Shown here: piece by piece, positions 381 through 12,929 of the stretch
Layout of the letters: every line of letters begins with the position of its first letter
Numbering within the stretch: position 1 is the stretch's first letter
Origin: a virus
UHGV virus genome: UHGV-0274736
Reading direction: 5' to 3' (one strand)
DNA length: 13,898 bases
Position numbers and translations under genes: made by a program
The notes under the pieces: generated by a model
Database searches by the model: none
What the model was told of the DNA's origin: nothing
The model's input: only the letters and a program-made list of their open reading frames with translations

Positions 381-500
381 AATCCGTTGAAGCCTGCTTT
401 TTTATACTAAGTTGGCATTATAAAAAAGCATTGCTTATCAATTTGTTGCAACTAACAGGTCACTATCAGTCAAAATAAAATCATTATTTGATTTCAATTT
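381..500. other. attL (B-O-P'): 15-bp lambda core GCTTTTTTATACTAA at 396-410, host-type B arm to the left, phage P' arm with arm-type Int/IHF sites to the right
   Basis: Core sequence read directly at 396-410; downstream GTTGGCATTATAAAAAAGCATTGCTTATCAATTTGTTGCAAC...CAGTCAAAATAAAATCATTATTTG matches the recalled lambda attP P' arm; upstream tgaagcct matches recalled attB side. Confidence 0.85.
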
Positions 501-1554
501 TGTCCCACTCCCTGCCTCTGTCATCACGATACTGTGATGCCATGGTGTCCGACTTATGCCCGAGAAGATGTTGAGCAAACTTATCGCTTATCTGCTTCTC
601 ATAGAGTCTTGCAGACAAACTGCGCAACTCGTGAAAGGTAGGCGGATCCCCTTCGAAGGAAAGACCTGATGCTTTTCGTGCGCGCATAAAATACCTTGAT
701 ACTGTGCCGGATGAAAGCGGTTCACGACGAGTAGATGCAATTATGGTTTCTCCGCCAAGAATCTCTTTGCATTTATCAAGTGTTTCCTTCATTGATATCC
801 CGAGAGCATCAACATGCAATGTTGTTGGGATGGCAATTTTTACGCCTGTTTTGCTTTGCTCGACATAAAGATATCCATCTACGATATCAGACCACTTCAT
901 TTCGCATAAATCACCAACTCGTTGCCCGGTAACAACAGCCAGTTCCATTGCAAGTCTGAGCCAACATGGTGATGATTCTGCTGCTTGATAAATTTTCAGG
1001 TATTCGTCAGCCGTAAGTCTTGATCTCCTTACCTCTGATTTTGCTGCGCGAGTGGCAGCGACAGGGTTTGTTGTTATATGGCCTTCAGCTATTGCCTCTC
1101 GGAATGCATCGCTCAGTGTTGATCTGATTAACTTGGCTGACGCCGCCTTGCCATCGTCTATGTATCCATTGAGCATTGCCGCAATTTCTTTTGTGGTGAT
1201 GTCTTCAAGTGGAGCATCAGGCAGACCCCTCCTTATTGCTTTAATTTTGCTCATGTAATTTATGAGTGTCTTCTGCTTGATTCCTCTGCTGGCCAGGATT
1301 TTTTCGTAGCGATCAAGCCATGAATGTAACGTAACAGAATTATCACTGTTGATTCTCGCTGTCAGAGGCTTGTGTTTGTGTCCTGAAAATAACTCAATGT
1401 TGGCCTGTATAGCTTCAGTGATTGCTATCCTCCTGTCTCGGCCTAATCCAAACTCTTTACCCGTCCTTGGGTCCCTGTAGCAGTAATATCCATTGTTTCT
1501 TATATAAAGATTAGGGGGTAAATCCCGGCGCTCATGACTTCGCCTTCTTCCCAT
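484..1554 (-). CDS. int: Tyrosine integrase, lambda Int type (356 aa)
   Basis: ORF-track protein MGRRRSHERRDLPPNLYIRNNGYYCYRDPRTGKEFGLGRD...HLLGHKSDTMASQYRDDRGREWDKIEIK matches recalled lambda Int almost throughout; stop abuts attL P' arm. Confidence 0.97.
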   Translation of the reverse strand: MGRRRSHERRDLPPNLYIRNNGYYCYRDPRTGKEFGLGRDRRIAITEAIQANIELFSGHKHKPLTARINSDNSVTLHSWLDRYEKILASRGIKQKTLINYMSKIKAIRRGLPDAPLEDITTKEIAAMLNGYIDDGKAASAKLIRSTLSDAFREAIAEGHITTNPVAATRAAKSEVRRSRLTADEYLKIYQAAESSPCWLRLAMELAVVTGQRVGDLCEMKWSDIVDGYLYVEQSKTGVKIAIPTTLHVDALGISMKETLDKCKEILGGETIIASTRREPLSSGTVSRYFMRARKASGLSFEGDPPTFHELRSLSARLYEKQISDKFAQHLLGHKSDTMASQYRDDRGREWDKIEIK

Positions 1555-1750
1555 TTTTGATCCTCTTCAAAAGGCTACCTGTTACTGGTCGATTTAAGTC
1601 AACCTTTACCGCTGATTCGTGGAACAGATACTCTCTTCCATCCTTAACCGGAGGAGGGAATATCCTGCACTCGCGTACCCATCGACGAACTGTTTCAAGG
1701 CTTCTTGGGCGTCGCTGGCGTGCGTTCCACTCCTGAAGTGTCAAGTACAT
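1532..1750 (-). CDS. xis: Excisionase, lambda Xis type (72 aa)
   Basis: MYLTLQEWNARQRRPRSLETVRRWVRECRIFPPPVKDGREYLFHESAVKVDLNRP... matches recalled lambda Xis; 3' end overlaps int start by 23 nt as in lambda. Confidence 0.95.
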   Translation of the reverse strand: MYLTLQEWNARQRRPRSLETVRRWVRECRIFPPPVKDGREYLFHESAVKVDLNRPVTGSLLKRIKNGKKAKS

Positions 1751-2057: not shown

Positions 2058-3248
2058 TTAGCCACGGTTAACCTCCTGCGGAGGTTCCGGTAGAGGCATC
2101 CAGTGGGTTACATTGCGGCTCTGTGTTTCGAAAAATTCATCACCATTGCGGACAATATCGAAAAACTCTCCGTCTCGATATTGCGCATAAAGAACGAATG
2201 CGCCATCACATAAAATAATTACGTGCTGACCATCATCTGGCATTAGCTCACTACAGCTTATCCAACCATCCGGAGTTCCCGGAGTTGGTCCATCGAATTC
2301 GGGCATGTCAGGACCTTTTCTGATAGCTTTAGCCAGCTCCAGCGGGTCATCGTAAAGCCAGTCGCCAGTTTGTGGGTGATTTGCTTCTGCAAGCTGCGCA
2401 GCCCATTCAAGACCATCTTTTTGACCTTGGAGATAATCAAGTGGCAACTCTTCATGATTACTTGCAGGTTCGACACACTGAAGCATGGCAGCGTGGCAGG
2501 CATACTCAACGCCCTTAACTTCATCTGCGCAGTAGTTATAGCGATTGCATTCCACTAATTTCCATTTGAGTTTTTCAATTGCCTGCGCGACATCAGCCTG
2601 TATTACAGGAACTGGCGGAACGGCTGTTTGCTCTCGAACGTCATTAGTCGCTATCGGTTCTGCTGCCAACTGACTGGCATATTTGTTAATGGTAACGATA
2701 AGCTCTTGCTCAGCCTCATCCAGACAATCACCGATACCTCGCCTGTCACCGTCAAAATCATCGAAATCGGCACGAATCTTGGCAACCTTCAGGATTGCGG
2801 ACAACACCTCACTAGGAATTACCGGATAGTTGGTTGACGTTTCCGCGATTTCCCGAAAATTATTGGTTGACGAATTCTTGTTTTCCCGAAAGTTTCCGGA
2901 CTGAAGCATGGCGGCGCGGCAGGCGTTCCAGCCATCTGCGTAACAATCTCTGTGTGTCTTGAAATATGTCACCGCCCTTGGTACATCGTTTACGTCTATT
3001 TCATCCGGCACAACCGGCGCAGGTGAGTCAGCATAAACAGGAATAACGTCCGGTTGCTCTTTATTGCTTTCATCCGTTAAAGCCCAGAATAATTTCCCGG
3101 CCGGATGTTTGAAAATATAAGCAACTGGTTCGGCTTCCAGTGATGCCAGCGCAATTCGTGCCAGTTCCATTTGTTCGCCACGGGTAAGCCCGTTATCAAG
3201 CGGATTTTTAATGAATAATTCGATACGTTCTTTGGTAATAGTGGTCAT
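2058..3248 (-). CDS. Prophage protein with C-terminal DUF551-like domain (396 aa)
   Basis: Start ATG with GAGGAT SD; stop overlaps nothing; C-terminal segment WISCSELMPDDGQHVIILCDGAFVLYAQY...THWMPLPEPP resembles the DUF551 signature as I recall it; start codon overlaps the stop of the upstream gene (ATGA). Confidence 0.6.
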   Translation of the reverse strand: MTTITKERIELFIKNPLDNGLTRGEQMELARIALASLEAEPVAYIFKHPAGKLFWALTDESNKEQPDVIPVYADSPAPVVPDEIDVNDVPRAVTYFKTHRDCYADGWNACRAAMLQSGNFRENKNSSTNNFREIAETSTNYPVIPSEVLSAILKVAKIRADFDDFDGDRRGIGDCLDEAEQELIVTINKYASQLAAEPIATNDVREQTAVPPVPVIQADVAQAIEKLKWKLVECNRYNYCADEVKGVEYACHAAMLQCVEPASNHEELPLDYLQGQKDGLEWAAQLAEANHPQTGDWLYDDPLELAKAIRKGPDMPEFDGPTPGTPDGWISCSELMPDDGQHVIILCDGAFVLYAQYRDGEFFDIVRNGDEFFETQSRNVTHWMPLPEPPQEVNRG

Positions 3249-3454
3249 TTGTTAATCCTCAAAACTTTATGCCCGGGCGCAAAAGCACGTGTTTTGTCTT
3301 TACTTATTCGCCACCCGTCTTTACGGGCCTCTTTTGCACAACCAGACCATGACGTACCGATATACTCACCGAAGTCTGGCACTGGATATACACCCTCCGT
3401 ACACTGGCGGCAGTCACAATAGAGATGCATGGTGTAACTTGCAGCGATAGCCAT
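3245..3454 (-). CDS. Small Cys-rich protein (69 aa), possible zinc-binding
   Basis: AAGGAG SD before ATG at 3454; motif C-D-C-x2-C plus a later Cys; translationally coupled to neighbours on both sides. Confidence 0.55.
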   Translation of the reverse strand: MAIAASYTMHLYCDCRQCTEGVYPVPDFGEYIGTSWSGCAKEARKDGWRISKDKTRAFAPGHKVLRINK

Positions 3455-3455
3455 A

Positions 3456-4163
3456 TCACTCTCCTTTGATGCGAATGCCTGCGGCGCGGATTGCAGCGAT
3501 GACTTCAGAAACTTTGTATGCCATTACCGTTTGGTAATCATCGTGAAAATCTGTTCGATGAAGCATGCTGCTACGTTCCGGGAGCGATATTTCCCGAGCA
3601 TCCAGTTCCTTAACGCGTTCCTCCAGTTCGTAGACCCTGCATTGTTCTCTATCATCAATCAGATATAACCCAAGACATTCGCTTTCTACCCAACCGCCAA
3701 AATCATGATCGTAACGCTCACATGAAAACTCACCGTCACCGTCCTTTGTTGGAATGGTGTAACTATCTAATGGGCCACCATATGTCGGCACATTTCCCAA
3801 TGTTGGATGCTCAATCCACATGAAAAATGCACGTCCGGTTATTGGGCAAATATCTGGCCGCCATTGGTTACGAACAGCCTTGGTTTCGGATAATTCTTCA
3901 GCGTGTTGTTTTACTTCCTCAAGCTCAACTCTCAGCTTCCCCACCGTTAGCGCAATATCCTCGTTCTCCTGATCGCGGCTTTTGATGTATTGCAGGTTTC
4001 TTTCCCGTTCATCCAACAATGCCAGCGCGATATCTGGCGAAAAGTGCTTCATAAAATCGTTAAGCGCATTAATTCGCTGATCGAAAGGCATTACAGGTGC
4101 TTCACCAGCAATTTTTGTTTTTTCAGCGATTTCACGAAGCTTTTGATAATCAATCTTGCTCAC
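3456..4163 (-). CDS. Ea22-like protein (235 aa)
   Basis: GTG start with AGGAGG SD; segments LLDERERNLQYIKSRDQENEDIALTVGKLRVELEE and C-terminal AAGIRIKGE resemble recalled conserved N- and C-terminal regions of lambda Ea22, with a divergent middle region. Confidence 0.5.
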   Translation of the reverse strand: MSKIDYQKLREIAEKTKIAGEAPVMPFDQRINALNDFMKHFSPDIALALLDERERNLQYIKSRDQENEDIALTVGKLRVELEEVKQHAEELSETKAVRNQWRPDICPITGRAFFMWIEHPTLGNVPTYGGPLDSYTIPTKDGDGEFSCERYDHDFGGWVESECLGLYLIDDREQCRVYELEERVKELDAREISLPERSSMLHRTDFHDDYQTVMAYKVSEVIAAIRAAGIRIKGE

Positions 4164-4404
4164 TGGTTGCCTCCTGCTTTTCTGCCTTCAACACCATGCG
4201 AGAACCATCATCCAGCTCCCACACGATCTCACCACCTTCAGCCATGACCAGTTGCCACACCAATTGAGCAGCCTCATTGGTAACATCACGACCTAGATCA
4301 TTGCCAACTCGCATACGTCCACCTTCAACATCGCGCATTTTTGCCAGCATGATAGTTTTTGATAGCGGTGAAAAACCAAGCTGTAGTCGTGCGGAATTAC
4401 TCAC
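4150..4404 (-). CDS. Hypothetical protein (84 aa)
   Basis: GTG start with AGGAGG SD 6 nt upstream; 3' end overlaps Ea22-like start; same strand and operon context. Confidence 0.55.
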
Positions 4405-4568
4405 TGCTTGCCTCCTTTACGCCACATCGCATTCAGATATTTGTTGTCATTAACAGAGCCGAAACTATTTCTCTTAAGCAATTCCTCTCTCGATGGCATT
4501 GGCTTTACGCGTTGGCGAATAATCATTTCTGCCGGAAGAATGCCGGGATTGTATGCAAGTCCTCTCAT
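4401..4568 (-). CDS. Hypothetical protein (55 aa from internal Met; track ORF extends to 4601)
   Basis: TAAGGA SD 7 nt before ATG at 4566-4568, directly after the stop of the upstream gene; the longer track ORF start at 4601 lacks an SD and would overlap the upstream gene. Confidence 0.45.
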
Positions 4569-4578
4569 GGTAAATTCC

Positions 4579-4875
4579 TTAGTCATTACTGATAGCGCCA
4601 TAGCGTGAGCGGTAATTACGCAGACGCGGGTCGATATATTCAGGGAATTTGTCTATTGTCGCTTTTCGCAACGGTCTCATTGCTGTTTCGTTTGTTCGGT
4701 CCTTCTCCTGTTTTAGCGCGAGTTGTATATCGCGTCGGTACTTCCGTTCTTCTTTTGTTTCTGGTGGCAGAGCAAGAAACGCGTCGAGATTATTCTTGAT
4801 ATTTTCCAGCACCTCCGATATGGAATTGCCGGAACAGCGGCGCGGGTCGTCCGCACCATATAGAGGCGCTGGCAT
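4579..4875 (-). CDS. Hypothetical protein (98 aa)
   Basis: Complete minus-strand ORF in operon context; weak SD; no recognised motif. Confidence 0.5.
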
Positions 4876-4898
4876 AATGGGAGCCTTATTTTCAGTGA

Positions 4899-5486
4899 TC
4901 AGAAAGGAGGGTAATCGTTCTGGCTGTAACCATAATCATCTGCATGATTATGGCTTACGTTTTTAGAGCGATTGTCTTTATCTTTGAGGCTGGCAACCAT
5001 GTTGGCGATAGTTTCTGGTTGCTTGCCTTCCGCCTTTTCTTTAAGGGTTTGACCTGTTTGTGCAATAAACGGGATGCGTATTTCCATCTGGTAGCTGTCT
5101 GCGCCAGTCTTTTTGTTTGTGGTTAATACTTTCTGGAGCACTAACCCGATTTTCTTTCCATGAAATTCAGGTGCAACAAATTTACTGGCGGAAACCATAT
5201 GTTGCGTTAATTGTCCAATCCCGGCACACCCCATCATGGCGTGAACGACATTTGTGCCAAATTTGTTTTCCGTTCCGTCATTTTTCTGAACACAGACGCT
5301 AAGATATTGGATTTTACGTCCGTCGTCGGATTCGCCAGAAAACTCAATAAATTTGGCTCCTTTTTCTGATTGCTTTAGTTCTGCTTCAGTAATGGTAATG
5401 ATATGAGCGCCAGTTTCGTTAATAAAACCGCCTTGTCCTGCGGTCAGTGCTGCTTCTTCGTTATAAGTAAAAATCACGCTGATCAT
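4899..5486 (-). CDS. SSB-like recombination accessory protein, DUF669-type (195 aa)
   Basis: N-terminal pattern G-x-F/Y...ITEAELKQSEKGAKFIEF typical of DUF669 as I recall it; acidic C-terminal tail ending DDYGYSQNDYPPF resembles the SSB C-terminal DDDIPF tip; ATGA overlap with the upstream ATPase gene. Confidence 0.55.
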   Translation of the reverse strand: MISVIFTYNEEAALTAGQGGFINETGAHIITITEAELKQSEKGAKFIEFSGESDDGRKIQYLSVCVQKNDGTENKFGTNVVHAMMGCAGIGQLTQHMVSASKFVAPEFHGKKIGLVLQKVLTTNKKTGADSYQMEIRIPFIAQTGQTLKEKAEGKQPETIANMVASLKDKDNRSKNVSHNHADDYGYSQNDYPPF

Positions 5487-6163
5487 GCGGCGTTTTCCTT
5501 AATTTGATGAACATTATTGATGCCGTAGTAATCACAAACAGTGGCATCGACGAAAGAGAGATCGTTATCAATCTCATTGGAATCAAACATTCCCATTGGG
5601 GATTTAACAGTGTCTGCACCGTTGTTTTTCGTGATGAAAAAGAACTGGTCATCGCGGGTAAGAGTGCGAAGAACTATAGTAAACATGCCTTCGACAGTGA
5701 TTTTCTCGTCCAGCATTTTGCCGATAGTTTTCATTTTCACGCGCCCCATAGGGGTTTCTTCGGTATGGGCAAGAAAATAGACTCTCAGGTCATCAGGCGC
5801 ATCCTGTGCAGCCTTAATGACCTCCCATGCGTGACGGCCTATCTCAGTGAATTTATCAAACGATTTTTCTTCTGAGCGGCGCATAAACTCATTGCTCATC
5901 ACATACTGGAAGTCATCAACAATAACGATTCTTTTCCCGTATTCGTGAGCACGCTTAATTACGGCAACTATTACGTCCCATTTGTCAGTGGTGACTACGG
6001 TTCCTTTTTTTGCTCTGGCATCCCATGCAAGCCAGTCTTTTGATTTAAATGGTAGCGGCTTGCCTATTGGTTTTATAAGTATTGCTTCCTCGGGATTGAT
6101 ATTTCTCATGCTGGTTGATTTTCCGGTGCCAGACTCACCGAGTATTAATGTCGCAGTTCCCAT
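5483..6163 (-). CDS. Sak4-like RecA-fold ATPase (AAA_24 type, 226 aa)
   Basis: Walker A GESGTGKST near the N-terminus, Walker B RIVIVDDF; size and position next to an SSB-like gene are typical of phage Sak4 recombinases; GAGGTGA SD. Confidence 0.75.
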   Translation of the reverse strand: MGTATLILGESGTGKSTSMRNINPEEAILIKPIGKPLPFKSKDWLAWDARAKKGTVVTTDKWDVIVAVIKRAHEYGKRIVIVDDFQYVMSNEFMRRSEEKSFDKFTEIGRHAWEVIKAAQDAPDDLRVYFLAHTEETPMGRVKMKTIGKMLDEKITVEGMFTIVLRTLTRDDQFFFITKNNGADTVKSPMGMFDSNEIDNDLSFVDATVCDYYGINNVHQIKENAA

Positions 6164-6171
6164 AATTCACC

Positions 6172-6360
6172 TCAGAATGGTAATTCGGATGGAGAGGAAA
6201 GAAACTCGCGCTCATTCATGCGCTCTCTTTGTGCCTGCCATAAAGAAAGTTGTTTCTTTGATTTATCTCCCGCTTTACGCCAGTAACGAGCCTCAGCAAT
6301 GTGATATTCTCTTTTTAATCGACTTAACTCTGGGGTTTTCGCCAGTTCTACCGGAATCAT
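6172..6360 (-). CDS. Small hypothetical protein (62 aa from second Met; track ORF starts at 6372)
   Basis: GGAGG 6 nt upstream of the ATG at 6358-6360; ATGA overlap with kil stop; occupies the position of gam in lambda but is not Gam-like. Confidence 0.45.
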   Translation of the reverse strand: MIPVELAKTPELSRLKREYHIAEARYWRKAGDKSKKQLSLWQAQRERMNEREFLSSPSELPF

Positions 6361-6470
6361 TTTGACCTCCATTTTCTGTAGGCTTCTACGGCTTCACGAA
6401 ACATCTTTTCATCGCCAATAAAAGTGGCGATAGTGAATTTAGTCTGGATAGCCATAAGTGTTTTATCCAT
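6357..6470 (-). CDS. kil: Kil-like host cell-division inhibitor (37 aa)
   Basis: MDKTLMAIQTKFTIATFIGDEKMFREAVEAYRKW resembles recalled lambda Kil; start overlaps cIII stop by 8 nt, as kil and cIII overlap in lambda. The track lists a longer 67-aa ORF with a probably spurious N-terminal extension. Confidence 0.6.
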   Translation of the reverse strand: MDKTLMAIQTKFTIATFIGDEKMFREAVEAYRKWRSK

Positions 6471-6609
6471 TTTTGGGAACTCCTGGCTGATTAAGTACGT
6501 CGATGAGTCGTTTCCATCCGTCACGTAATTTACGGGTGATTCGTTCAAGTAAAGATTCATTTAGTTGGAAGGCACCCATGCGAGCGCCTCCCGCGATTGC
6601 GTAAATCAT
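6463..6609 (-). CDS. cIII: CIII-like protein (FtsH inhibitor, stabiliser of CII), 48 aa
   Basis: Translates MIYAIAGGARMGAFQLNESLLERITRKLRDGWKRLIDVLNQPGVPKNG; the segment ESLLERITRKLRDGWKRLID-LNQPGVPKNG matches recalled lambda CIII; AAGGA SD; below the length cut-off of the ORF track. Confidence 0.8.
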   Translation of the reverse strand: MIYAIAGGARMGAFQLNESLLERITRKLRDGWKRLIDVLNQPGVPKNG

Positions 6610-6633
6610 GGGTGGTTCCTTATGTTGGTTTTA

Positions 6634-7602
6634 TTAGTAGATTATTTTTGTTGCGAATACTTCGCCTTTTACGATGGCTGTTATGATATTTTTAGCAACA
6701 TCTTCTGATGCGCCAACCTTGATAAGGTCAGCAAGTATTTTGTTATTTACTTCTTTCCGGTGAGCTTTATCCTTTGCTCTACGCTCTTCTTCGTCCTTGA
6801 TTCTTTTTTCTTCTGCTATTCTGGCTTGCTCTTTTGCTTCAGCTTCGCGCCGGATTCGTTCAGCCTCCTCCTGTGCTTTTCGGCGTTCTGCTTCAATTGC
6901 CGCCTGCTTTTCTCTTTCAGCTCGTTCTGCTGCCTCTTTTGCTTCGCGCTGTGCTCGTTGCTCGGCTTCAATGCGTTCACGCTCTGCACGTTCCGCTGCG
7001 GCCTTAGCTTCTGCTTCTCGCCTTGCTGCTGCTTCAATTTCGGCTTTTGCCTTTGCTTCGGCTTCAGCTCTGGCTTTCTCTTCAGCTTCTCTTTTTAAGC
7101 GTTCTTCATGCTCTCGCTTTTCCTGCTCCGCTTTGAGTCTTGCCTCTTCTCTTTGGCGGTCAAATTCGCGATCCATCAAAATAGCTATTTCATGGTCAGA
7201 CTCAATTTGCTTTGCGAGAGCTTCAGCTGCTGCCTTAGCTTCTTCTTCGGCTTTAATCCGTGCCTGTTCCTCCTCATAATCAGTAAGAGGCTGGCGCGCC
7301 TTGGCTTTCAGTTCATCAAGGCGATCGCGCACTGTCTTGCGGTTGGCATCAATTAGCTTTGGAATTTCCTTCAGTTCAGCAACAAGGTCTTTGCCAAGAC
7401 CATCGAGATATGTTTTCGTCTGCGCAACTTTATACGCCAGAGAAGCGATCTCCTTTCTGCCCTTTGCCGTTGTGATATCAGGCACAAAGGACATAACTTC
7501 ACGTTCAACCCTTTGAAGGATTTCTTCAATCTGGTCGGCAGACTGAAATACAGTCATTGCATTTGCTTTTTCAATAACAACTAAATCTGTTACTTCACTC
7601 AT
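6634..7602 (-). CDS. Glu/Ala/Lys/Arg-rich coiled-coil protein (322 aa) with globular N- and C-terminal ends
   Basis: GGAGGA SD 5 nt before ATG; about 170 residues of EAKR-type low-complexity repeat (REAEEKARAEAEAKAKAEIEAAARREAEAK...); the plus-strand ORFs in the same interval are antisense artefacts of the repeat. Confidence 0.75.
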   Translation of the reverse strand: MSEVTDLVVIEKANAMTVFQSADQIEEILQRVEREVMSFVPDITTAKGRKEIASLAYKVAQTKTYLDGLGKDLVAELKEIPKLIDANRKTVRDRLDELKAKARQPLTDYEEEQARIKAEEEAKAAAEALAKQIESDHEIAILMDREFDRQREEARLKAEQEKREHEERLKREAEEKARAEAEAKAKAEIEAAARREAEAKAAAERAERERIEAEQRAQREAKEAAERAEREKQAAIEAERRKAQEEAERIRREAEAKEQARIAEEKRIKDEEERRAKDKAHRKEVNNKILADLIKVGASEDVAKNIITAIVKGEVFATKIIY

Positions 7603-7735
7603 ATATCCTCCGTCAAAAAATTGCCCTCACACTGGAGAGCAAAGAAGATTTCCAATAATCAGAACAAGTCTGCTCCTGTTTAGTTACGAGCGACATTGCT
7701 CCGTGTATTCACTCGTTGGAATGAATAAACAGTGC

Positions 7736-7924
7736 TTATTCGTCATGCATTTCAGGTAATTCTTCGTATTCGACTCCCCATACGTTTTTACACCAACTAA
7801 CTCGCTCATATCTTTTACAAAAATCAGACCACATAACTTGGGTTCCATCATGGTTTGTTATTACTTCTGTAATATCACCAACACTAACAAAACTGGTATT
7901 AGAAGCAGTTATTTTTACTTTCAT
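7736..7924 (-). CDS. Hypothetical protein (62 aa)
   Basis: Complete ORF; start overlaps the stop of the upstream 98-aa gene (TAATG); no recognised motif. Confidence 0.45.
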   Translation of the reverse strand: MKVKITASNTSFVSVGDITEVITNHDGTQVMWSDFCKRYERVSWCKNVWGVEYEELPEMHDE

Positions 7925-8220
7925 TACTTATCCCCAAGAGCTTTTCTGATTGCTGCAAGACCTTTATTAACAGCTCCATACCATTCTGGATATGTTGTCG
8001 TTGTTCTATTTTTGGATTGCTTAAGTAATAACTGAAGTGCTTCGAGAAGGTCAGGTGCTGCCGCTATTAGATTGGCATCTTCAATACATTTAACTTCCTC
8101 ACAGATTGCAATATACGAACGCCAGCCTGCGCCATTTTCAAGTGAGTCTGCCTGGATGATTTTAATCTCATCGCCATCCATCATTATTTCCCACTTACCT
8201 TCAGTACCTTTAAATTCCAT
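7924..8220 (-). CDS. Hypothetical protein (98 aa)
   Basis: AGAGG SD 7 nt before ATG at 8218-8220; no recognised motif. Confidence 0.5.
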   Translation of the reverse strand: MEFKGTEGKWEIMMDGDEIKIIQADSLENGAGWRSYIAICEEVKCIEDANLIAAAPDLLEALQLLLKQSKNRTTTTYPEWYGAVNKGLAAIRKALGDK

Positions 8221-8257
8221 GTTAGCCTCTGTTGTTTATGCCAAAAATAAAGGACGA

Positions 8258-8881
8258 CTATGCGGCCTCGGAAGGAAGTCCAATCATCTTATTCAAATCT
8301 TCTACCCGTAAAGCAGGAAGTGCTGTACTTGCTTTATCTGCTTCTTTTGGTAGCAACTCTTTGCTTTCAGGCCAAACCTCAATAAGTCGCTTAACTGTTG
8401 TGACTGAGTTTAAAGCAGCCCATACATTTGATTCGATATCCTTTTTCTTGGCTTCAAGTTTTTGTTGTAATGAGCAGATTTCATCAAACCTTTTTGTTAT
8501 TTCGTGCTCTGCGTCAAACATGCATTTATCTTTTGTCGGAGTAGGAAGCAATATATCTTCGCCGTTGCCGTCTTTCCCATATGAATGCCATCCAACCCTT
8601 CTGCCAGATACAGTCAGATAAATTGAAGTAGAACGAACATCGCATGAGTAAAATGAACATCCCATCTTTTCAAGTTCTTCACTTATAGCTACCAACTTGG
8701 ATGATAACTGATCAACTTCCTCAGTTTTCTTTTTACCGCCAAACGCAATAACTCTGGCGTCAAGTGCAAGCTGGTTCTTTAACTTTGTTACTTCTTCAAG
8801 TTCAGTGAAAACCCCAGACTTAATTAAAGCTTTACGAGCGATTTCCTCTTTCATTCTCGTAGTTAAGCGGATTGATGACAT
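8258..8881 (-). CDS. Hypothetical protein (207 aa from Met-21 of the track ORF)
   Basis: GAGAGGA SD precedes the ATG at 8879-8881, whereas the track start at 8941 has none; predicted helical with two Cys pairs (CSFYSC, C...C); no family recognised. Confidence 0.5.
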   Translation of the reverse strand: MSSIRLTTRMKEEIARKALIKSGVFTELEEVTKLKNQLALDARVIAFGGKKKTEEVDQLSSKLVAISEELEKMGCSFYSCDVRSTSIYLTVSGRRVGWHSYGKDGNGEDILLPTPTKDKCMFDAEHEITKRFDEICSLQQKLEAKKKDIESNVWAALNSVTTVKRLIEVWPESKELLPKEADKASTALPALRVEDLNKMIGLPSEAA

Positions 8882-9088
8882 ATTAATTCCTCTCAAATAA
8901 GTGGTTTGCTGCCTAATTTCATTTTCTGGCGACCAACACAAGTCACACCCATTTCACTGCGTGGCTTGCGGTAGTAAAGATTGTGCCTGTCTTTTAACCA
9001 CATCAGGCTCGGTGGTTCTCGTGTACCCCTACAGCGAGAAATCGGATAAACTCTATTCACCCCTACAGAGAGCAAAAGAGAAACGCCG

Positions 9089-9670
9089 ATGAACAACTCA
9101 TGGTGGCAGGAACTAATGCATTTTTTCCTGCAAGGAATGACACTTAAACAGTTGATTCATATGCTAATCATCCTGATCATATTGATTATTGTTATGCCGG
9201 TAAGCGTAAAAGAATGGATAAACCTGCATAATCCAGAAATCCTTCCTCATTATTGGATGTATTACATCCTGTTGTTCTGCGTTAGCTATGTGCTTAACGG
9301 TGTTGTTAATTCCGCTTATCACGCTGTGACTGAAAGAATTGAGGTATCCGCTGCTCAGAAGCGCAAATCTAAAGAAGAAAAATATGTGCAAGATTTGTTT
9401 GATTCGTTAACTCTTGGAGAAAGAGCGTATTTGGCATTCGCTGTAGCCGCGAATAACAAGCTAAAGACAGAAAAGGGAAGCCCCGAAGCAATCTCATTGC
9501 TCGAAAAAGGGCTTCTTATTCGGATACCTTCTGCTACTGGATATCCTGAAATCGACCGTTTTGTTATCCCGGAACGCTATAGAAATGAGTGCTACATTAG
9601 GTTTGCTGGGAAGAAAGACAGTCTTATGGATGAACTTATCGCTCAGGATAAGCATGGCAAAAACAAGTAA
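9089..9670 (+). CDS. sieB: Superinfection exclusion protein B
   Basis: MNNSWWQELMHFFLQGMTLKQLIHMLIILIILIIVMPVSVKEWINLHNPEILPHYWMYYILLFC... matches recalled lambda SieB; convergent with N as in lambda. Confidence 0.85.
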   Translation: MNNSWWQELMHFFLQGMTLKQLIHMLIILIILIIVMPVSVKEWINLHNPEILPHYWMYYILLFCVSYVLNGVVNSAYHAVTERIEVSAAQKRKSKEEKYVQDLFDSLTLGERAYLAFAVAANNKLKTEKGSPEAISLLEKGLLIRIPSATGYPEIDRFVIPERYRNECYIRFAGKKDSLMDELIAQDKHGKNK

Positions 9671-9686
9671 TTAGCAAATGATTTTA

Positions 9687-10070
9687 TCATCTCGCCGTCA
9701 GTTGTTTTGATTTCCTGTAGCCTGCCGCGTAAATGGCTACGTTTGGAAGACATACACCAGTTTCTGGTTGCTTATGTCCAAACTCATTCGCGTACACAAT
9801 GGCCGCTCGCTCCAGATTGCGTCTGTATTCTTTCTGTTGCCAGATCACGTCCTGTGCCATGAACTTAATTGGCTTAGCGTCTTCTATGCGCTCAGGCGTT
9901 TCGTGAGCACCTTTAGCCTGAATCTGCGCTCTGCTTAGAGTAGGGCGGTGTAATACTTCTGAACTTATTGCTTCTTCGCGGGCCAGCACGCCGTTAGCTA
10001 ATGCCTTTGCCTTTAAACGCTCACGACGACGAGAACGTGAATTGCCTTTGAACTGAGTTCTGCGTGTCAT
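9687..10070 (-). CDS. N: N-type transcription antiterminator (127 aa) with N-terminal arginine-rich motif
   Basis: AGGAGG SD 6 nt before ATG; N-terminal GNSRSRRRERLKAKA is an arginine-rich RNA-binding motif like lambda/P22 N; sits directly downstream of a boxB-like hairpin and pL-like promoter. Could alternatively be a Nun-type factor. Confidence 0.7.
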   Translation of the reverse strand: MTRRTQFKGNSRSRRRERLKAKALANGVLAREEAISSEVLHRPTLSRAQIQAKGAHETPERIEDAKPIKFMAQDVIWQQKEYRRNLERAAIVYANEFGHKQPETGVCLPNVAIYAAGYRKSKQLTAR

Positions 10071-10235
10071 ATAGACCTCCTGATGAACTTTGGTGGTGTG
10101 GTAGGTGGGAGACCCATTTCGACCTGTTTCGGCCTACTTCAATTCGGCAATAGTCCCGCAGGCCTCGCCGCTTTACGTGCGACATATTCCCGTCCATGAA
10201 CCCTTCACCACACCCCAAAGTTCACTTTGGTTATT

Positions 10236-10250
10236 GCGCTTTGTCAGCGC
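10236..10250 (-). promoter_or_regulatory. nutL boxB-like hairpin (GCGCTGACAAAGCGC on the transcribed minus strand)
   Basis: 5-bp stem with 5-nt GACAA loop in the N leader; the same hairpin core with the same 5' flank CTACG recurs downstream of cro (see nutR). Confidence 0.6.
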
Positions 10251-10318
10251 CGTAGATTCATATTCGAATCGTTGTATATTCACCGCCCTGGTGAGTAGTG
10301 CGTCCTGCTGATAGCTAA

Positions 10319-10347
10319 ATAGTACGATGTGTACTTTATTGAGTCAA
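10319..10347 (-). promoter_or_regulatory. pL-like promoter with operator OL candidate in the spacer
   Basis: On minus strand: -35 TTGACT (10342-10347), 17-nt spacer, -10 TACTAT (10319-10324); 15-bp perfect palindrome AGTACGATGTGTACT (10321-10335) overlaps the spacer and -10. Confidence 0.5.
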
Positions 10348-10404
10348 TACAAAATGTTCTAAATATGGTTGGTTTTTTATAACACCTTGTATTTTATTGA
10401 TTTA

Positions 10405-10440
10405 TATTTTGGAAAAAGAAAACCCGACGCTAAGGTCGGG
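10405..10440 (-). terminator. Intrinsic terminator downstream of cI
   Basis: Hairpin CCCGAC-GCTAAG-GTCGGG at 10423-10440 followed on the minus strand by TTTTCTTTTTCC; lies 33 nt past the cI stop. Confidence 0.6.
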
Positions 10441-10472
10441 TTATTGTTGTGTGTTTTAGAGTGGTGATGCTG

Positions 10473-11132
10473 TTAACTAAATGTCTCTTCAGGCCACTGG
10501 CTGGCGATAACTTTCCCTACTACGGAACAGCTATCATTGCATGGGATCATTGGATATTGCGGGTTTAGTGGTTGTAGGAACACCTGACCGCTATCCCTGA
10601 TCAGTTTCTTGAAGGTAAACTCCTCACCACCAAGTCTGGCTATGCAGAAATCACCTGGCTCAACAGCCTGCTCAGGGTCAACGAGAATTAACATCCCGTC
10701 AGGAAAACTTGGCTTGGATCCTGTTGGTGCGGTCATGGAATTACCTTCAACTTCAAGCCAAAACGCACAATCACTGGCTTTTTTGGTTGTGCTGACCCAT
10801 CTCTCCGCATCACCTTTGGTAAAGGTTCTAAGCTCAGGCGAGAACATCCCGGCCTGAACATGAGAAAAAACAGGGTACTCATATTGTTTTTTTACGGGGG
10901 CAGATGAGTATTCGCCAACAGGTGAAAATGTACCGTCGTGGTTGAATGAGACGTTATCAATACCAAGGTATTTAAACACCACACCAATCTCGTCAAGAGA
11001 TGGATGACGAGATCCGCGCAACCAGTGACCAATTCCACCCTGCGTCATACCAAGCTCTTCAGCTAACTTCTCTTGAGTTATGCCGAGCTCTTTCATTCTG
11101 GATCTAGCCAGTTCATACCATTTCATTTTCAT
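10473..11132 (-). CDS. cI: CI repressor: HTH (XRE-type) N-terminal domain plus lambda-type LexA-like S24 autopeptidase C-terminal domain
   Basis: C-terminal roughly 130 aa ([21 protein letters not shown]...GNSMTAP...[27 protein letters not shown]...) match recalled lambda CI including the Ala-Gly cleavage site and Ser/Lys dyad; N-terminal domain differs from lambda. Start is ambiguous (ATG at 11132 or 11126); the track ORF start at 11207 would run through the operator region. Confidence 0.85.
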
Positions 11133-11188
11133 ATCCTTATTATTACGCTCTGTACTAAAACCATCCATGCACAAGATGTATTTTTTGT

Positions 11189-11217
11189 TTGCATTCCAAG
11201 AGTACATATCGTATTAT
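11189..11217 (+). promoter_or_regulatory. pR-like promoter with operator OR candidate in the spacer
   Basis: -35 TTGCAT (11189-11194), 17-nt spacer, -10 TATTAT (11212-11217); spacer contains AGTACATATCGTATT (11201-11215), nearly identical to the OL palindrome. Confidence 0.5.
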
Positions 11218-11243
11218 TGTTTCATAGTTACTATGGAGGGCAT

Positions 11244-11459
11244 ATGAGCAACCTACGAAAATATCGAGAGTCACTGAATATCTCTCAAGCAACCCTTGCT
11301 AAGGCGGTTGGATGCACACAGGGGGCTATCGGACATTGGGAATCTGGTCGTCGCTTCCCAGACCTTAAAACATGCCGTGCTCTTGTTGCGTGCCTAAACA
11401 AGTTAGGCGCAAAAGTCAGTCTTGATGACGTGTTCCCGCCGGAACACCAAGCCGCTTAA
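11244..11459 (+). CDS. cro: Cro-like repressor (71 aa, HTH)
   Basis: GGAGG SD 4-5 nt before ATG at 11244; HTH segment ISQATLAKAVGCTQGAIGHWESG closely parallels the cI HTH ([23 protein letters not shown]); divergent from cI. The track ORF start at 11073 is an upstream extension overlapping cI. Confidence 0.8.
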   Translation: MSNLRKYRESLNISQATLAKAVGCTQGAIGHWESGRRFPDLKTCRALVACLNKLGAKVSLDDVFPPEHQAA

Positions 11460-11461
11460 TA

Positions 11462-11473
11462 AGCGGATCCGCT
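11462..11473 (+). other. 12-bp perfect palindrome AGCGGATCCGCT immediately after the cro stop, overlapping a second palindrome CCGCTTA-A-TAAGCGG across the stop codon
   Basis: Read directly; followed by ATTTTC; may be a weak terminator or protein-binding site. Confidence 0.3.
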
Positions 11474-11500
11474 ATTTTCACAATGGACATTCGTCCTACG

Positions 11501-11515
11501 TCGCTGACAAAGCGA
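11501..11515 (+). promoter_or_regulatory. nutR boxB-like hairpin (TCGCTGACAAAGCGA)
   Basis: Same stem-loop core and CTACG 5' flank as the nutL candidate; located between cro and cII as in lambda. Confidence 0.55.
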
Positions 11516-11590
11516 GTCCCAATATATCTGACCAACTAAGGCCATATGCGTTTCCACGCATACCTTTCAGCTAACTATTCACTATTGGAA

Positions 11591-11623
11591 ATATTAAGAA
11601 ATGACACAAACAAGTTACAGCAA
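11591..11623 (-). promoter_or_regulatory. Candidate pRE (CII-activated promoter) overlapping the cII start
   Basis: Minus strand reads TTGC-TGTAAC-TTGT (11610-11623, cf. the CII site TTGC-N6-TTGC) followed 17 nt later by TAATAT (11591-11596); orientation would drive antisense through cro into cI. Confidence 0.35.
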
Positions 11624-11897
11624 ACTATCACAGCGCGACGTTGATCGCGCTGAAACTGATTTACTTATCAACCTGTCAACGCTTACCCAGCGCGGTCTGG
11701 CAAAGATGATTGGCTGTCATGAATCGAAGATAAGCAGAACGGACTGGAGATTTATTGCTTCGGTCTTGTGTGCTTTCGGAATGGCATCAGACATCAGTCC
11801 GATTAGCAGGGCTTTTAAGTATGCGCTTGATGAAATCACAAAGAAAAAATCCCCGGCCGCCACCGAGGATTTTAAGCAAATTGGTATGCAATTCTGA
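11601..11897 (+). CDS. cII: CII-like transcriptional activator (98 aa)
   Basis: Central HTH region and C-terminus [18 protein letters not shown] resemble recalled lambda CII (...KKRPAATERSEQIQMEF); position after cro/nutR. Confidence 0.8.
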
Positions 11898-11929
11898 GGG
11901 AATTACTGGATCAATCCACAGGAGTAATT

Positions 11930-12076
11930 ATGACAAAACAACTCAGTCCTTACCAGGACAAAATTCACAAACACATACTACGTGATCGCTTCCTGTCCAG
12001 CTTCAAGCAGCCTGGTCGATTCCGGTCTGAGTTGGAAAAAGTGAAGCTGATGCAGAAGGAGAAAGGTCATGAGTAA
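11930..12076 (+). CDS. Small hypothetical protein (48 aa) between cII and O
   Basis: AGGAG SD 6 nt before ATG at 11930; stop overlaps the O start by 8 nt; below the length cut-off of the ORF track. No recognised family. Confidence 0.4.
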
Positions 12077-12929
12077 TATTGCAACCGTAACACATTTAAG
12101 GCCTTCACAACGGCCTGTGGAGCGTCGTGTGGCAGAAGTTGAAGATGGTTATACCCGTCTTGCAAATGCCCTGTATGAAGAGCTTATCGGCGCAGATTTA
12201 ACGAAAAATCAGAGCAAGGTTGCCCACGCCATATGCCGTAAAACATACGGCTACGGTAAAAAGATGGATCGCATCTCTGATAGTCAGTTAGCTCAAATTA
12301 CCAGGCTGCCAAGACAGAAGGTAAACAAGGCCAAGAATGAGCTTATCGCGATGAAGGTTATCCTTCGCGAAGGCCAGCAAATCGGGCCTAACAAGAACAT
12401 CGAGGAATGGCAAATCGAAGGGTGTCACTACTCTGGTGATAATGTCACTGCATTGGTGACAAAAAGTGTCACCAAAACGGTGACAGCGCTGTCACCAAAA
12501 CAGGGACACACAAAAGAAACTATTACAAAAGAAAAAAGAAATAATAAAAACACTATGTCCGAAAGTGTTCGGACGGAGTGTGAAAAATCACCTGACCGTC
12601 ACGAAGAAACCGACAAGGCATTCGAGGAAATATTCTGGTGTGCAGGCATGCGGAAAGCCGGGAAGAAAAACGCAGCTTCGGCATTCAGAACACAGTTCAG
12701 GGAATGGCGTAAAACTACCAGGGGTACGGCAAGCGAGTTTGCCACGATGCTGGCAGAAGACATCGCATGCAGGAATGGTAAGCAGTTCGGATTCGACAGG
12801 TTGTTACCATCGAGCTACCTGAACGGTCAACGCTGGAACGACGAGAAGCCAGAAACTATTCAACCACAATCCAAACCATCATCCGCAATCACCGTATCGA
12901 AAACTGGCTACGTGTTTTTCGACAGGTGA
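12069..12929 (+). CDS. O: Replication initiator, lambda O-like N-terminal domain with a non-lambda C-terminal domain (286 aa)
   Basis: N-terminal segment [73 protein letters not shown]...GPNKNIEEW parallels recalled lambda O; iterons lie inside the gene. Confidence 0.8.
12421..12575. repeat. Replication origin candidate: iterons built on GGTGACA/TGTCACC inverted half-sites, adjacent AT-rich block, then palindrome GTCCGAA-AGTG-TTCGGAC
   Basis: GGTGACAAAAAGTGTCACC and GGTGACAGCGCTGTCACC, each followed by AAAAC, plus degenerate copies upstream; A-rich tract 12505-12550; 7-bp-arm palindrome at 12557-12574. Confidence 0.6.

Follow-up and report, generated by a model that had tools for sequence, protein, structure and literature searches.

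A VT2-Sakai-type immunity region in a lambdoid prophage, with a repressor that is a head-tail mosaic relative to lambda CI

The control region around cI and cro in the window (the whole stretch of DNA analysed, 13,898 nt of the virus genome UHGV-0274736) is, with a probability of about 0.9, the immunity module (OL/pL, terminator, cI, OR/PRM/PR and cro) of a lambdoid prophage of the VT2-Sakai immunity type, which has already been described. The carriers of this type very probably include the Stx1-converting phage AP005153, Stx2 II, Nil2, 2851, 1717, YYZ-2008, vB_EcoP-720R6, Dewey and phi458. The gene content, the homologies, the breakpoint within cI and the conservation of the operators were established directly in this analysis. 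The head-tail mosaic of the repressor is real but belongs to a common type, described for Shiga-toxin phages in 2000, and is thus already known.

The repressor and its cognate Cro

The genes and domains concerned are the following.
10473..11126, minus strand: cI repressor gene, 217 aa from ATG 11126 (ORF, Pfam and homology)
ATG 11132, minus strand: alternative start of cI, giving 219 aa
10884..11126, minus strand: head of cI, the HTH_3 DNA-binding domain and the first part of the linker, of VT2-Sakai and not of lambda type
10473..10883, minus strand: lambda-like block of cI, comprising the linker end, the Ala-Gly site and the complete S24 domain for oligomerisation and autocleavage (Y82-S217 and stop)
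11244..11459, plus strand: cro, 71 aa, all-helical, Pfam HTH_3 (E 4e-12)

The longest minus-strand ORF of cI (10473-11207) reaches into the operators, and the start of translation is likely either ATG 11126, with the Shine-Dalgarno sequence AAGGA 7 nt upstream, or ATG 11132. The head domain was recognised as Pfam HTH_3 (E 8e-11, residues 11-58) and the tail as Peptidase_S24 (E 9e-29), and the residues A92-G93, S130 and K173 (217-aa numbering) fall in invariant columns of the alignment with lambda CI, opposite A111-G112, S149 and K192 of the lambda protein. The product has, accordingly, the domain composition of the LexA/lambda-CI-type self-cleaving repressors, namely an N-terminal HTH domain, an S24 domain with the Ser/Lys dyad and an Ala-Gly pair in the linker. 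The exact 217-aa protein is already present in NCBI, as is the exact Cro protein; the former occurs on 41 contigs, and its 90% cluster counts 1686 members.

The first-pass annotation had described the C-terminal domain as lambda-like, and the alignment bears this out: the block 10883-10473, from the Tyr-Glu-Tyr-Pro codons to the stop, matches lambda cI without gaps in 384 of 411 nucleotides and 132 of 136 residues, so that CI agrees with lambda CI at about 97% over its C-terminal two thirds, with the Ala-Gly site and the Ser/Lys dyad preserved, and the near-identity in BLASTP extends through the C-terminal end. The lambda repressor structures 3bdn, 8gmu, 2ho0, 1kca and 1f39 were matched by the tail at E 1e-63 to 1e-96. 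Since 22 of the codon differences from lambda are synonymous and only 4 non-synonymous, the tail appears to be under purifying selection. The breakpoint could be placed at the nucleotide level, with its 5' edge near 10883, where similarity falls to background within a few bases of TATGAGTACCC; at the 3' edge the background level begins from the last codon and stop. Judged from these alignments, CI is a domain mosaic relative to lambda, and its junction falls within the linker, some 10 codons 5' of the predicted Ala-Gly self-cleavage site.

The head shares with that of lambda CI only 17 of 81 aligned residues (21%). The earlier claim of an unrelated DNA-binding domain is nevertheless an overstatement: the two heads belong alike to the lambda-repressor-like HTH class, and the PDB sequence search with the present head weakly retrieves the lambda N-terminal domain (E 7e-4). 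The heads of the Salmonella phages g341c, SPN9CC and ST64T are about 54% identical, and the PDB sequence search returned no 434 or P22 repressor structures for the head at E <=0.01. Among the other repressors compared, P22 C2 is 38% identical overall and uniformly distant, while HK022 CI (19%, E 0.06) and phi80 CI (E 0.016 over 23 residues) show essentially no similarity.

Cro was correctly recognised at first pass as an HTH protein with a recognition helix close to that of CI (TQGAIGHW in Cro versus TQGGIGHW in CI, aligned as CTQGAIGHW versus MTQGGIGHW). It is identical to the CI head at 22 of 62 positions (35%, E 6e-11), and on this similarity is read as a paralogue of the head. Cro and repressor have similar recognition helices also in the classical switches of the 434/P22 type, whose Cro is an HTH_3 protein paralogous to the repressor head; by its HTH_3 fold and the detectable similarity to the cognate head the present Cro is assigned to the same type. 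It is 97% identical to VT2-Sakai Cro (69/71) and 43% identical to g341c Cro, and it matches PDB 28tn at E 5e-17 and, weakly, the structures of the P22 C2 N-terminal domain, whereas no BLASTP alignment with lambda Cro was obtained at E <=100.

Operators, promoters and the segment after cI

The predicted control sites are given below, the operators without strand.
11141..11157: OR3, TATTACGCTCTGTACTA, with the motif ARTAC-N5-GTAYT; corresponds to an operator annotated in AP005153
11167..11183: OR2, ATGCACAAGATGTATTT, adjoining the -35 of the candidate PRM; operator annotated in AP005153
11200..11216: OR1, GAGTACATATCGTATTA, perfect motif; overlaps the spacer and -10 of PR
10378..10394: OL3, TATAACACCTTGTATTT, motif with 2 mismatches; operator annotated in AP005153
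10345..10361: OL2, CAATACAAAATGTTCTA, motif with 1 mismatch; overlaps the -35 of pL
10320..10336: OL1, TAGTACGATGTGTACTT, perfect motif; overlaps the -10 and spacer of pL
11188..11217, plus strand: candidate PR, TTTGCA, 18-nt spacer, TATTAT (promoter scan), at the position of the PR annotated in AP005153
11139..11167, minus strand: candidate PRM, -35 TGGATG (11167-11162) and -10 AATAAT (11144-11139), from reading of the sequence
10319..10347, minus strand: candidate pL, -35 TTGACT (10347-10342), 17-nt spacer, -10 TACTAT (10324-10319) (promoter scan)
10411..10442, minus strand: intrinsic terminator directly after cI, with an 8-bp stem of 5 G-C pairs (stem 10442-10421) plus UUUUCUUUUU, and a U-tract

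With at most one mismatch the operator motif was found 4 times versus 0.85 expected, all within the two control regions, an enrichment that is partly circular because the motif was derived from the same sites; with 2 mismatches its count across the whole window (21 versus 13.8 expected) shows no enrichment, and only the matches with at most one mismatch and their clustering are informative. Independent support comes from the Stx1-converting phage, VT2-Sakai and 720R6, in which the half-sites are invariant versus varying centres and spacers, and from the operators annotated at matching positions in AP005153. Thus, OR3 has the same sequence in all three phages, and OL3 is kept in the Stx1-converting phage and 720R6; OR2 and OL2 keep their half-sites with variable centres, the former among the relatives at large; the half-sites of OR1 are likewise kept, and this site is a reverse-complement repeat of OL1, whose half-sites are invariant, with G, A or T as the central base in three phages. 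Operators of lambda type (TATCACCG-type) have no match in the window at up to 3 mismatches.

In the promoter and terminator scans, shuffled sequence gave roughly the same number of sites as the real one; the calls are therefore based on where the sites lie and on their being conserved in relatives. In AP005153 the annotated "maintenance promoter" occupies the place of the candidate PRM, whose predicted start lies near ATG 11132; the cI mRNA may be leaderless, as in lambda. The centre-to-centre spacing of OR1 and OR2 is 33 bp versus 24 bp in lambda, so that a lambda-like pairwise cooperativity at these sites is not guaranteed.

From the cI stop to OL3 there are only 78 bp, occupied by the terminator, which has a dG of -12.4 kcal/mol (z -4.4, with none of 200 shuffles as stable) and is identical in 720R6; a tblastn search of the window with lambda RexA and RexB gave only noise (best E = 2). 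The order of cI, terminator and pL without rexA/rexB was, thus, read accurately at first pass. The suggestion that the missing rexAB is unusual was rejected: the P22 repressor gene c2 is also followed directly by OL/pL, without rex genes, so the absence is not special, and the slot after cI carries differing cargo among the relatives.

The flanking features on both sides are these.
10236..10250, minus strand: nutL, boxB-type hairpin, GCGCTGACAAAGCGC
9687..10070, minus strand: N antiterminator, first gene of the pL operon, Pfam N_peptide (E 2e-15)
11501..11515, plus strand: nutR, boxB-type hairpin, TCGCTGACAAAGCGA
11601..11897, plus strand: cII, Pfam Phage_CII (E 9e-32)
11623-11610, minus strand: candidate PRE, a CII-box-like TTGCTGTAACTTGT, from reading of the sequence

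Downstream of the candidate pL the nut hairpin is followed by N. A 13-mer, CGCTGACAAAGCG, is common to the nutL hairpin and to the region after cro, and we take both hairpins to be boxB of the P22 type. PRE is placed at the CII-box-like site as a candidate, by analogy with lambda and P22. The Rfam scan of 9600-12100 gave no matches at E <=1.

A rival reading, in which a cryptic prophage has left here only a degenerate immunity region that no longer functions, may draw on the mosaic scars of the window, such as an N gene remnant, and on the best coverage of the window by any record in one place, which is 57%. It is very improbable, since the ORFs of cI, cro, cII, N and O are all intact and matched by Pfam over their full length, the operators, promoters and terminator are intact and conserved, the tail of CI bears the mark of purifying selection, and the isolated phages 720R6, Dewey, Louie and 683R2 match the module, including the cI-terminator-pL order, at 97%.

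Immunity type and age of the mosaic

The overall layout of the switch, with three operators on each side, is that of lambda cI/cro/rexAB. Lambda differs in the head, in a Cro of another family, in its own operators and spacings and in the presence of rexA/rexB, and the region is, accordingly, not imm-lambda by its N-terminal domain, Cro, operators or rexA-rexB. The comparison supports the head, Cro and the predicted operators as a specificity set of their own, separate from that of lambda. The distinct immunity specificity claimed at first pass holds in this respect; its novelty does not, because the type is shared with the VT2-Sakai group.

CI and its counterpart in the Stx1-converting phage AP005153 share 96% identity over the full length and within each half, with 3 residue differences in the head and 5 in the tail, none of them in the HTH helices and none in the segment of helix 2 and helix 3. 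Over 83 aa, the head is 95.2% identical to that of VT2-Sakai and 96.4% to those of the Stx1-converting, Stx2 II, 2851 and 1717 phages; the values are 95-96% for YYZ-2008 and 100% for vB_EcoP-720R6 and phi458, and the DNA of the immunity region is 93% identical to that of Nil2. The VT2-Sakai group has the same six operator half-sites, PR/pL layout and cII type as the window, and differs from it by few amino acids and by the operator centres. By the CI head and recognition helix, the cognate Cro and the half-sites of OR and OL, the region is assigned to the VT2-Sakai immunity type, and homoimmunity is predicted. The gap between cI and OL contains only the terminator in 720R6, Dewey, Louie and 683R2, like in the window, whereas in VT2-Sakai and the Stx1/Stx2 II phages additional ORFs, orf22/b63 among them, take up about 1.5 kb there; therefore, OL and OR are about 0.9 kb apart in the window and about 2.3 kb apart in VT2-Sakai and the Stx phages.

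The first-pass annotation had stated that its reading would be refuted if the entire repressor resembled one known phage repressor evenly, without a breakpoint, and the AP005153 protein is such a repressor. According to PMC10742460 (2023), Fattah et al. (2000) described VT2-Sakai CI as highly homologous to lambda CI in its C-terminal part and little so in its N-terminal part. The mosaic is, with high confidence, old and common to all members of the immunity type, and did not arise in this prophage. In the C-terminal block the three pairwise nucleotide identities are nearly equal (93.4% for window-lambda, 92.2% for window-Stx1-converting phage and 92.9% for lambda-Stx1-converting phage), with almost all differences in third positions, which argues that the exchange is not recent. 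In the phage collection, at >=95% identity, 96 records have the CI tail, 63 the VT2-Sakai head and 36 the lambda head; going by these totals, the two head types roughly account for all tail records.

A recent recombination in this prophage lineage, placing a lambda C-terminal domain onto a foreign head and so making a new specificity, could appeal to the sharp breakpoint between cI and lambda cI and to the int, xis and att DNA of the prophage, lambda-like at 98-99%, which makes contact with lambda-like genomes plausible. However, at least 63 phage records have the same combination of head and tail at 95-100% identity, the exact protein is present on 41 contigs, cI runs alongside that of the Stx1-converting phage with no breakpoint and similar divergence in both halves (nucleotide identity of 94.8% for the head and 92.2% for the tail), the tail and that of lambda are no more alike (93.4%) than those of lambda and the Stx-phage allele (92.9%), and the immunity type was published in 2000, as PMC10742460 relates of Fattah et al. 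Such an origin has hardly any likelihood left and was rejected, as known repressors match uniformly over the full length.

As to the recombination at the domain linker proposed earlier, the junction relative to lambda does lie in the linker, but the direction need not be that of a lambda tail onto a different head; lambda could equally be the recipient. That the combination of HTH_3 head and tail is the older one, with lambda cI as the recombinant that gained the tail, is a serious contender at somewhat below even odds. It agrees with the full-length CI relatives in g341c, epsilon34 and Oslo (head 51%, tail 78%) and with the lambda head, whose nearest relative, the PA2-type CI (56%), has a tail only 65% identical to that of lambda, the lambda tail being closer to that of g341c (81%). 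However, there is no clock for the direction of exchange, and heads of the same lineage also stand on P22-class tails (Salmonella SEN22, head 54% and tail 47%; Vibrio phages, 50% and 45%); with such repeated reshuffling of heads and tails, either or both lineages could be recipients. The C1 switches of g341c, epsilon34 and Oslo resemble the present one also in Cro (43%) and in the same cII type, and differ in being more diverged, in other annotated repressor-binding sites and in two small ORFs after the repressor gene.

As a discovery, the old, shared mosaic carries little weight. It illustrates, in textbook fashion, how lambdoid phages exchange modules: the repressor head, Cro and the operators move together as a single unit of specificity, and the domain for oligomerisation and cleavage is swapped independently of them at the linker.

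Predicted working of the switch

CI dimers would bind the six 17-bp sites, three in OR and three in OL, through the half-site ARTAC and shut PR and pL, and CI at OR2 probably activates PRM. Cro, with its nearly identical helix, would bind the same sites and favour lytic growth. By homology with lambda, the CI tail is expected to provide dimerisation as well as pairwise and higher-order cooperativity, the latter of which may permit an OL-OR loop of about 0.9 kb, and to undergo RecA-stimulated self-cleavage at Ala-Gly by the Ser/Lys dyad, which would give SOS induction like that of lambda. The practical use lies in annotation: the prophage can be placed in the VT2-Sakai immunity group, common in Shiga-toxin phages, and this placement predicts which superinfecting Stx phages would be excluded, together with lambda-like SOS inducibility.

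Because the oligomerisation domains are near-identical (97%), mixed dimers or higher oligomers of CI and lambda CI might form in double lysogens and couple or weaken both immunities, a conjecture from the sequences that we regard as rather unlikely. If true, these oligomers would act via subunit titration or shared induction thresholds, and might underlie the "cross immunity" between VT2-Sakai and lambda that Fattah et al. (2000) are reported to have observed although the operators are dissimilar.

Repressor and Cro genes of the immunity region

The interval 10473-11459 comprises two divergent genes, cI and cro, and, with the neighbouring genes annotated by Pfam, identifies the region as that of lambdoid prophage immunity:

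11207 to 10473, minus strand: cI open reading frame, with the HTH_3 and Peptidase_S24 domains (Pfam)
11244-11459, plus strand: cro, 71 codons, HTH_3 (Pfam)
9687-10070, minus strand: N, intact
9089-9670, plus strand: SieB
11601-11897, plus strand: CII
12069-12929, plus strand: replication protein O

The plausible starts of cI are ATG 11132 (219 aa) and ATG 11126 (217 aa), the latter having AAGGA 7 nt upstream and being the start annotated in phage vB_EcoP-720R6. In the databases, this CI occurs with three starts (217, 219 and 231 aa), and the 231-aa form begins inside OR2/OR3 (11130-11168, minus strand). The first-pass annotation had described Cro as an HTH protein with a CI-like recognition helix (TQGAIGHW against TQGGIGHW), and the alignment of the CI head (the N-terminal HTH_3 domain with the first part of the linker) with Cro bears this out, with 22/62 residues identical (E 6e-11), MTQGGIGHW standing opposite CTQGAIGHW, and seven of the eight residues of the recognition helix shared. 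No alignment at all was found between this Cro and lambda Cro. The PDB entry 28tn, a 'lambda repressor-like protein', is a relative of Cro (11244-11456, plus strand) with a solved structure (E 5e-17, residues 1-69).

The CI mosaic and the known immunity type

In BLASTP, lambda CI was near-identical to the CI of the window over the later part, up to the C-terminus, with little similarity ahead of that. The alignment of five proteins gave 132/136 identical residues in the C-terminal block (the Peptidase_S24 tail), in agreement with the lambda-like C-terminal domain initially proposed, and 17/81 in the preceding aligned residues. At the nucleotide level, positions 10883-10473 of cI (411 nt) align without gaps to lambda 37637-37227 with 384/411 identities, the codon differences being 22 synonymous and 4 non-synonymous. 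The breakpoint was located at TATGAGTACCC, where the identity to lambda rises from ~0.3 to >0.83, and just past the cI stop codon it drops to ~0.2 (30-column windows). The junction falls in the interdomain linker. The Ala-Gly cleavage site, ~10 codons downstream of it, is invariant in the alignment together with the Ser and Lys matching the lambda catalytic dyad. Thus, judged from the alignments, the mosaic relation of CI to lambda is real, and the factual elements of the first-pass finding were all confirmed, except that 'unrelated to lambda' was slightly too strong for the head, since the lambda N-terminal domain is a weak match to it (E 7e-4).

However, the mosaic is not a novelty, nor is it peculiar to this locus. 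Uniform similarity to one known repressor, which the first-pass annotation had set against its own reading, was found in the CI of the Stx1-converting phage record AP005153 (96% overall; head 78/81, tail 131/136, alike in both). The head, compared over 83 aa, shares 95.2% of its residues with that of VT2-Sakai and 100% with the heads of 720R6 and phi458, and 69/71 residues of Cro are identical to VT2-Sakai Cro. NCBI contains exact copies of both the 217-aa CI and Cro, coming from E. coli genomes, and CI falls in a 90% cluster of 1686 members. Megablast of 10300-11600 against phage genomes returned the same region in 183 records, including the coliphages 720R6, Dewey, 683R2 and Louie (97% over 10300-11459) and a large set of Shiga-toxin phages, such as Nil2, 2851, 1717, YYZ-2008, AP005153, Stx2 II and the PA series (~93% over 10473-11600). 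According to Fattah et al. 2000, as relayed in a passage of a 2023 paper (PMC10742460), the homology of VT2-Sakai CI to lambda CI is high C-terminally and low N-terminally. The 2023 paper itself measured only weak binding of lambda CI to the VT2-Sakai operators, with an apparent Kd of ~4-6 uM versus 0.2-3 uM on its own sites (PMC10742460). Because of the near-full identity of CI and Cro to those of Stx phages, the NCBI copies and the published description, the mosaic, as read from sequence comparison, is part of an immunity type that is already known and widespread, and was made elsewhere than in this prophage. Mosaic joints were also observed at gene borders, the match to 720R6, Dewey, Louie and 683R2 ending at the cro stop codon (11459) and that to the Stx phages at the cI stop codon (10473).

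Among the other named repressors, P22 C2 is uniformly 38% identical to this CI, HK022 CI and phi80 CI showed essentially no similarity to it, and no 434 structure was among the matches of the head with E <=0.01, 434 being judged by structure matches rather than by direct comparison.

The nucleotide identities of the tail block are nearly equal in three directions (window-lambda 93.4, window-Stx1-converting phage 92.2 and lambda-Stx1-converting phage 92.9%), with differences mostly in third codon positions, which indicates that the exchange was not recent. In the phage collection, at >=95% identity, the tail was found in 96 records, the VT2-Sakai head in 63 and the lambda head in 36, so that the two head types account roughly for all tail records, as totals compared and not record by record. 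The Salmonella phages g341c, epsilon34 and Oslo carry a relative of this CI over its full length (head 51%, tail 78%), while the closest relative of the lambda head, of PA2-type (56%), has a tail 65% identical to that of lambda; these relationships hint that lambda may be the recipient of the tail. Heads of this lineage are also found on P22-class tails (tail identity ~47% in Salmonella phage SEN22 and ~45% in Vibrio phages), and the shuffling of heads and tails is general.

Operators, promoters and the proposed switch

The candidate control elements are as follows:

11141-11157: OR3, 17-mer, operator candidate by motif
11167-11183: OR2, 17-mer, operator candidate by motif
11200-11216: OR1, 17-mer, operator candidate by motif
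10320-10336: OL1, 17-mer, operator candidate by motif
10345-10361: OL2, 17-mer, operator candidate by motif
10378-10394: OL3, 17-mer, operator candidate by motif
11188-11217: PR candidate (TTTGCA, 18 nt, TATTAT), overlapping OR1
10347-10319: pL candidate (TTGACT, 17 nt, TACTAT), overlapping OL1 and OL2
-35 at 11167-11162, -10 at 11144-11139: weak PRM candidate, adjoining OR2
10442-10421: stem of the cI terminator, a strong hairpin with a U-tract after the cI stop (-12.4 kcal/mol, z -4.4)

The motif ARTAC-N5-GTAYT occurs four times in the window with <=1 mismatch versus 0.85 expected, all four inside the two control regions, and two mismatches recover the remaining operator-like sites. Since the motif was derived from these same sites, the comparison with relatives is the better evidence: the half-sites are kept in the Stx1-converting phage, VT2-Sakai and 720R6, with the central bases and inter-operator DNA variable (the OL1 dyad centre is G, A or T among the compared phages), and the operators annotated in AP005153 coincide with the proposed sites. 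No lambda-type operator was present in a search of the window. Transcription from PRM may start near ATG 11132, like that of the leaderless cI mRNA of lambda, and the AP005153 annotation agrees with this PRM.

As the first-pass annotation had stated, cI is followed by a terminator and pL, with the three operator-like sites and the pL-like promoter lying 3' of the hairpin. The 13-mer CGCTGACAAAGCG is present in identical form in the pL leader (10250-10236, minus strand) and after cro (11501-11515, plus strand), giving in both places a hairpin with a GCGC stem (GCGCUGACAAAGCGC); we take it to be a P22-type boxB, probably of nutL and nutR, and this pair supports the pL assignment. A boxA-like CGCTATTTT is seen at ~11470-11478.

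By homology, CI dimers would use the HTH_3 head to bind the six sites, repressing PR and pL and activating PRM from OR2, and the lambda-type tail would provide dimerisation, cooperative tetramer/octamer contacts and RecA-stimulated self-cleavage, so that prophage induction should be tied to the SOS response, like that of lambda. Cro, a paralogue of the CI head, would compete with CI for these operators, in the manner known from 434 and P22. OR1 and OR2 are spaced 33 bp apart, versus 24 bp in lambda, hence the details of cooperativity may differ.

The slot after cI and the prophage context

Between the cI stop and OL3 is a slot (10395-10472) whose cargo differs among phages: lambda and SfI have rexAB there, VT2-Sakai and the Stx1-converting phage orf22/b63 with neighbours, g341c gp41 and gp40, PA2 a DNA methyltransferase and phi80 gene 40A, whereas in P22, 720R6 and the window it is empty. 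The reported lack of rexA/rexB holds, as tblastn with lambda RexA and RexB against the window gave noise matches only; with cargo this variable, it is an ordinary state of the slot. The OL-OR distance is ~0.88 kb in the window, short because of no insert after cI, whereas the Stx1-converting phage has ~2.3 kb and lambda 2.4 kb.

Bases 1 to ~394 are unlike lambda, and from the core GCTTTTTTATACTAA on (junction ~395-409) the DNA is lambda-like at 98-99% identity, which places the beginning of the window at a prophage/host junction with a lambda-type attachment site:

after the att core: P' arm, lambda-like (98-99%)
484-1554, minus strand: int, lambda-like (98-99%)
1532-1750, minus strand: xis, lambda-like (98-99%)

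Coverage of the window at one place by any one genome or phage record reached at most 57%, and such partial coverage is normal for mosaic lambdoid prophages. A short open reading frame at 8893-9096 (minus strand) ends in ...YYRKPRSEMGVTCVGRQKMKLGSKPLI, which shares 16/27 residues with the lambda N C-terminus (E 2e-7); by this resemblance the frame looks like the remnant of an additional, dissimilar N gene across sieB, the intact N (9687-10070) being of another type.

The genes of the pL operon span 2058-8941 (minus strand) and include DUF7446, Ead/Ea22 and DUF551 proteins, as well as the following:

8258-8941, minus strand: Nmad5 (nucleotide-modification-associated) protein
5483-6163, minus strand: AAA_24 ATPase
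4579-4875, minus strand: Abc2 anti-RecBCD protein

Three open reading frames of this operon (2058-8941) had no Pfam match, one of them encoding a 322-aa protein (6634-7602), rich in Glu, Ala, Lys and Arg and probably coiled-coil.
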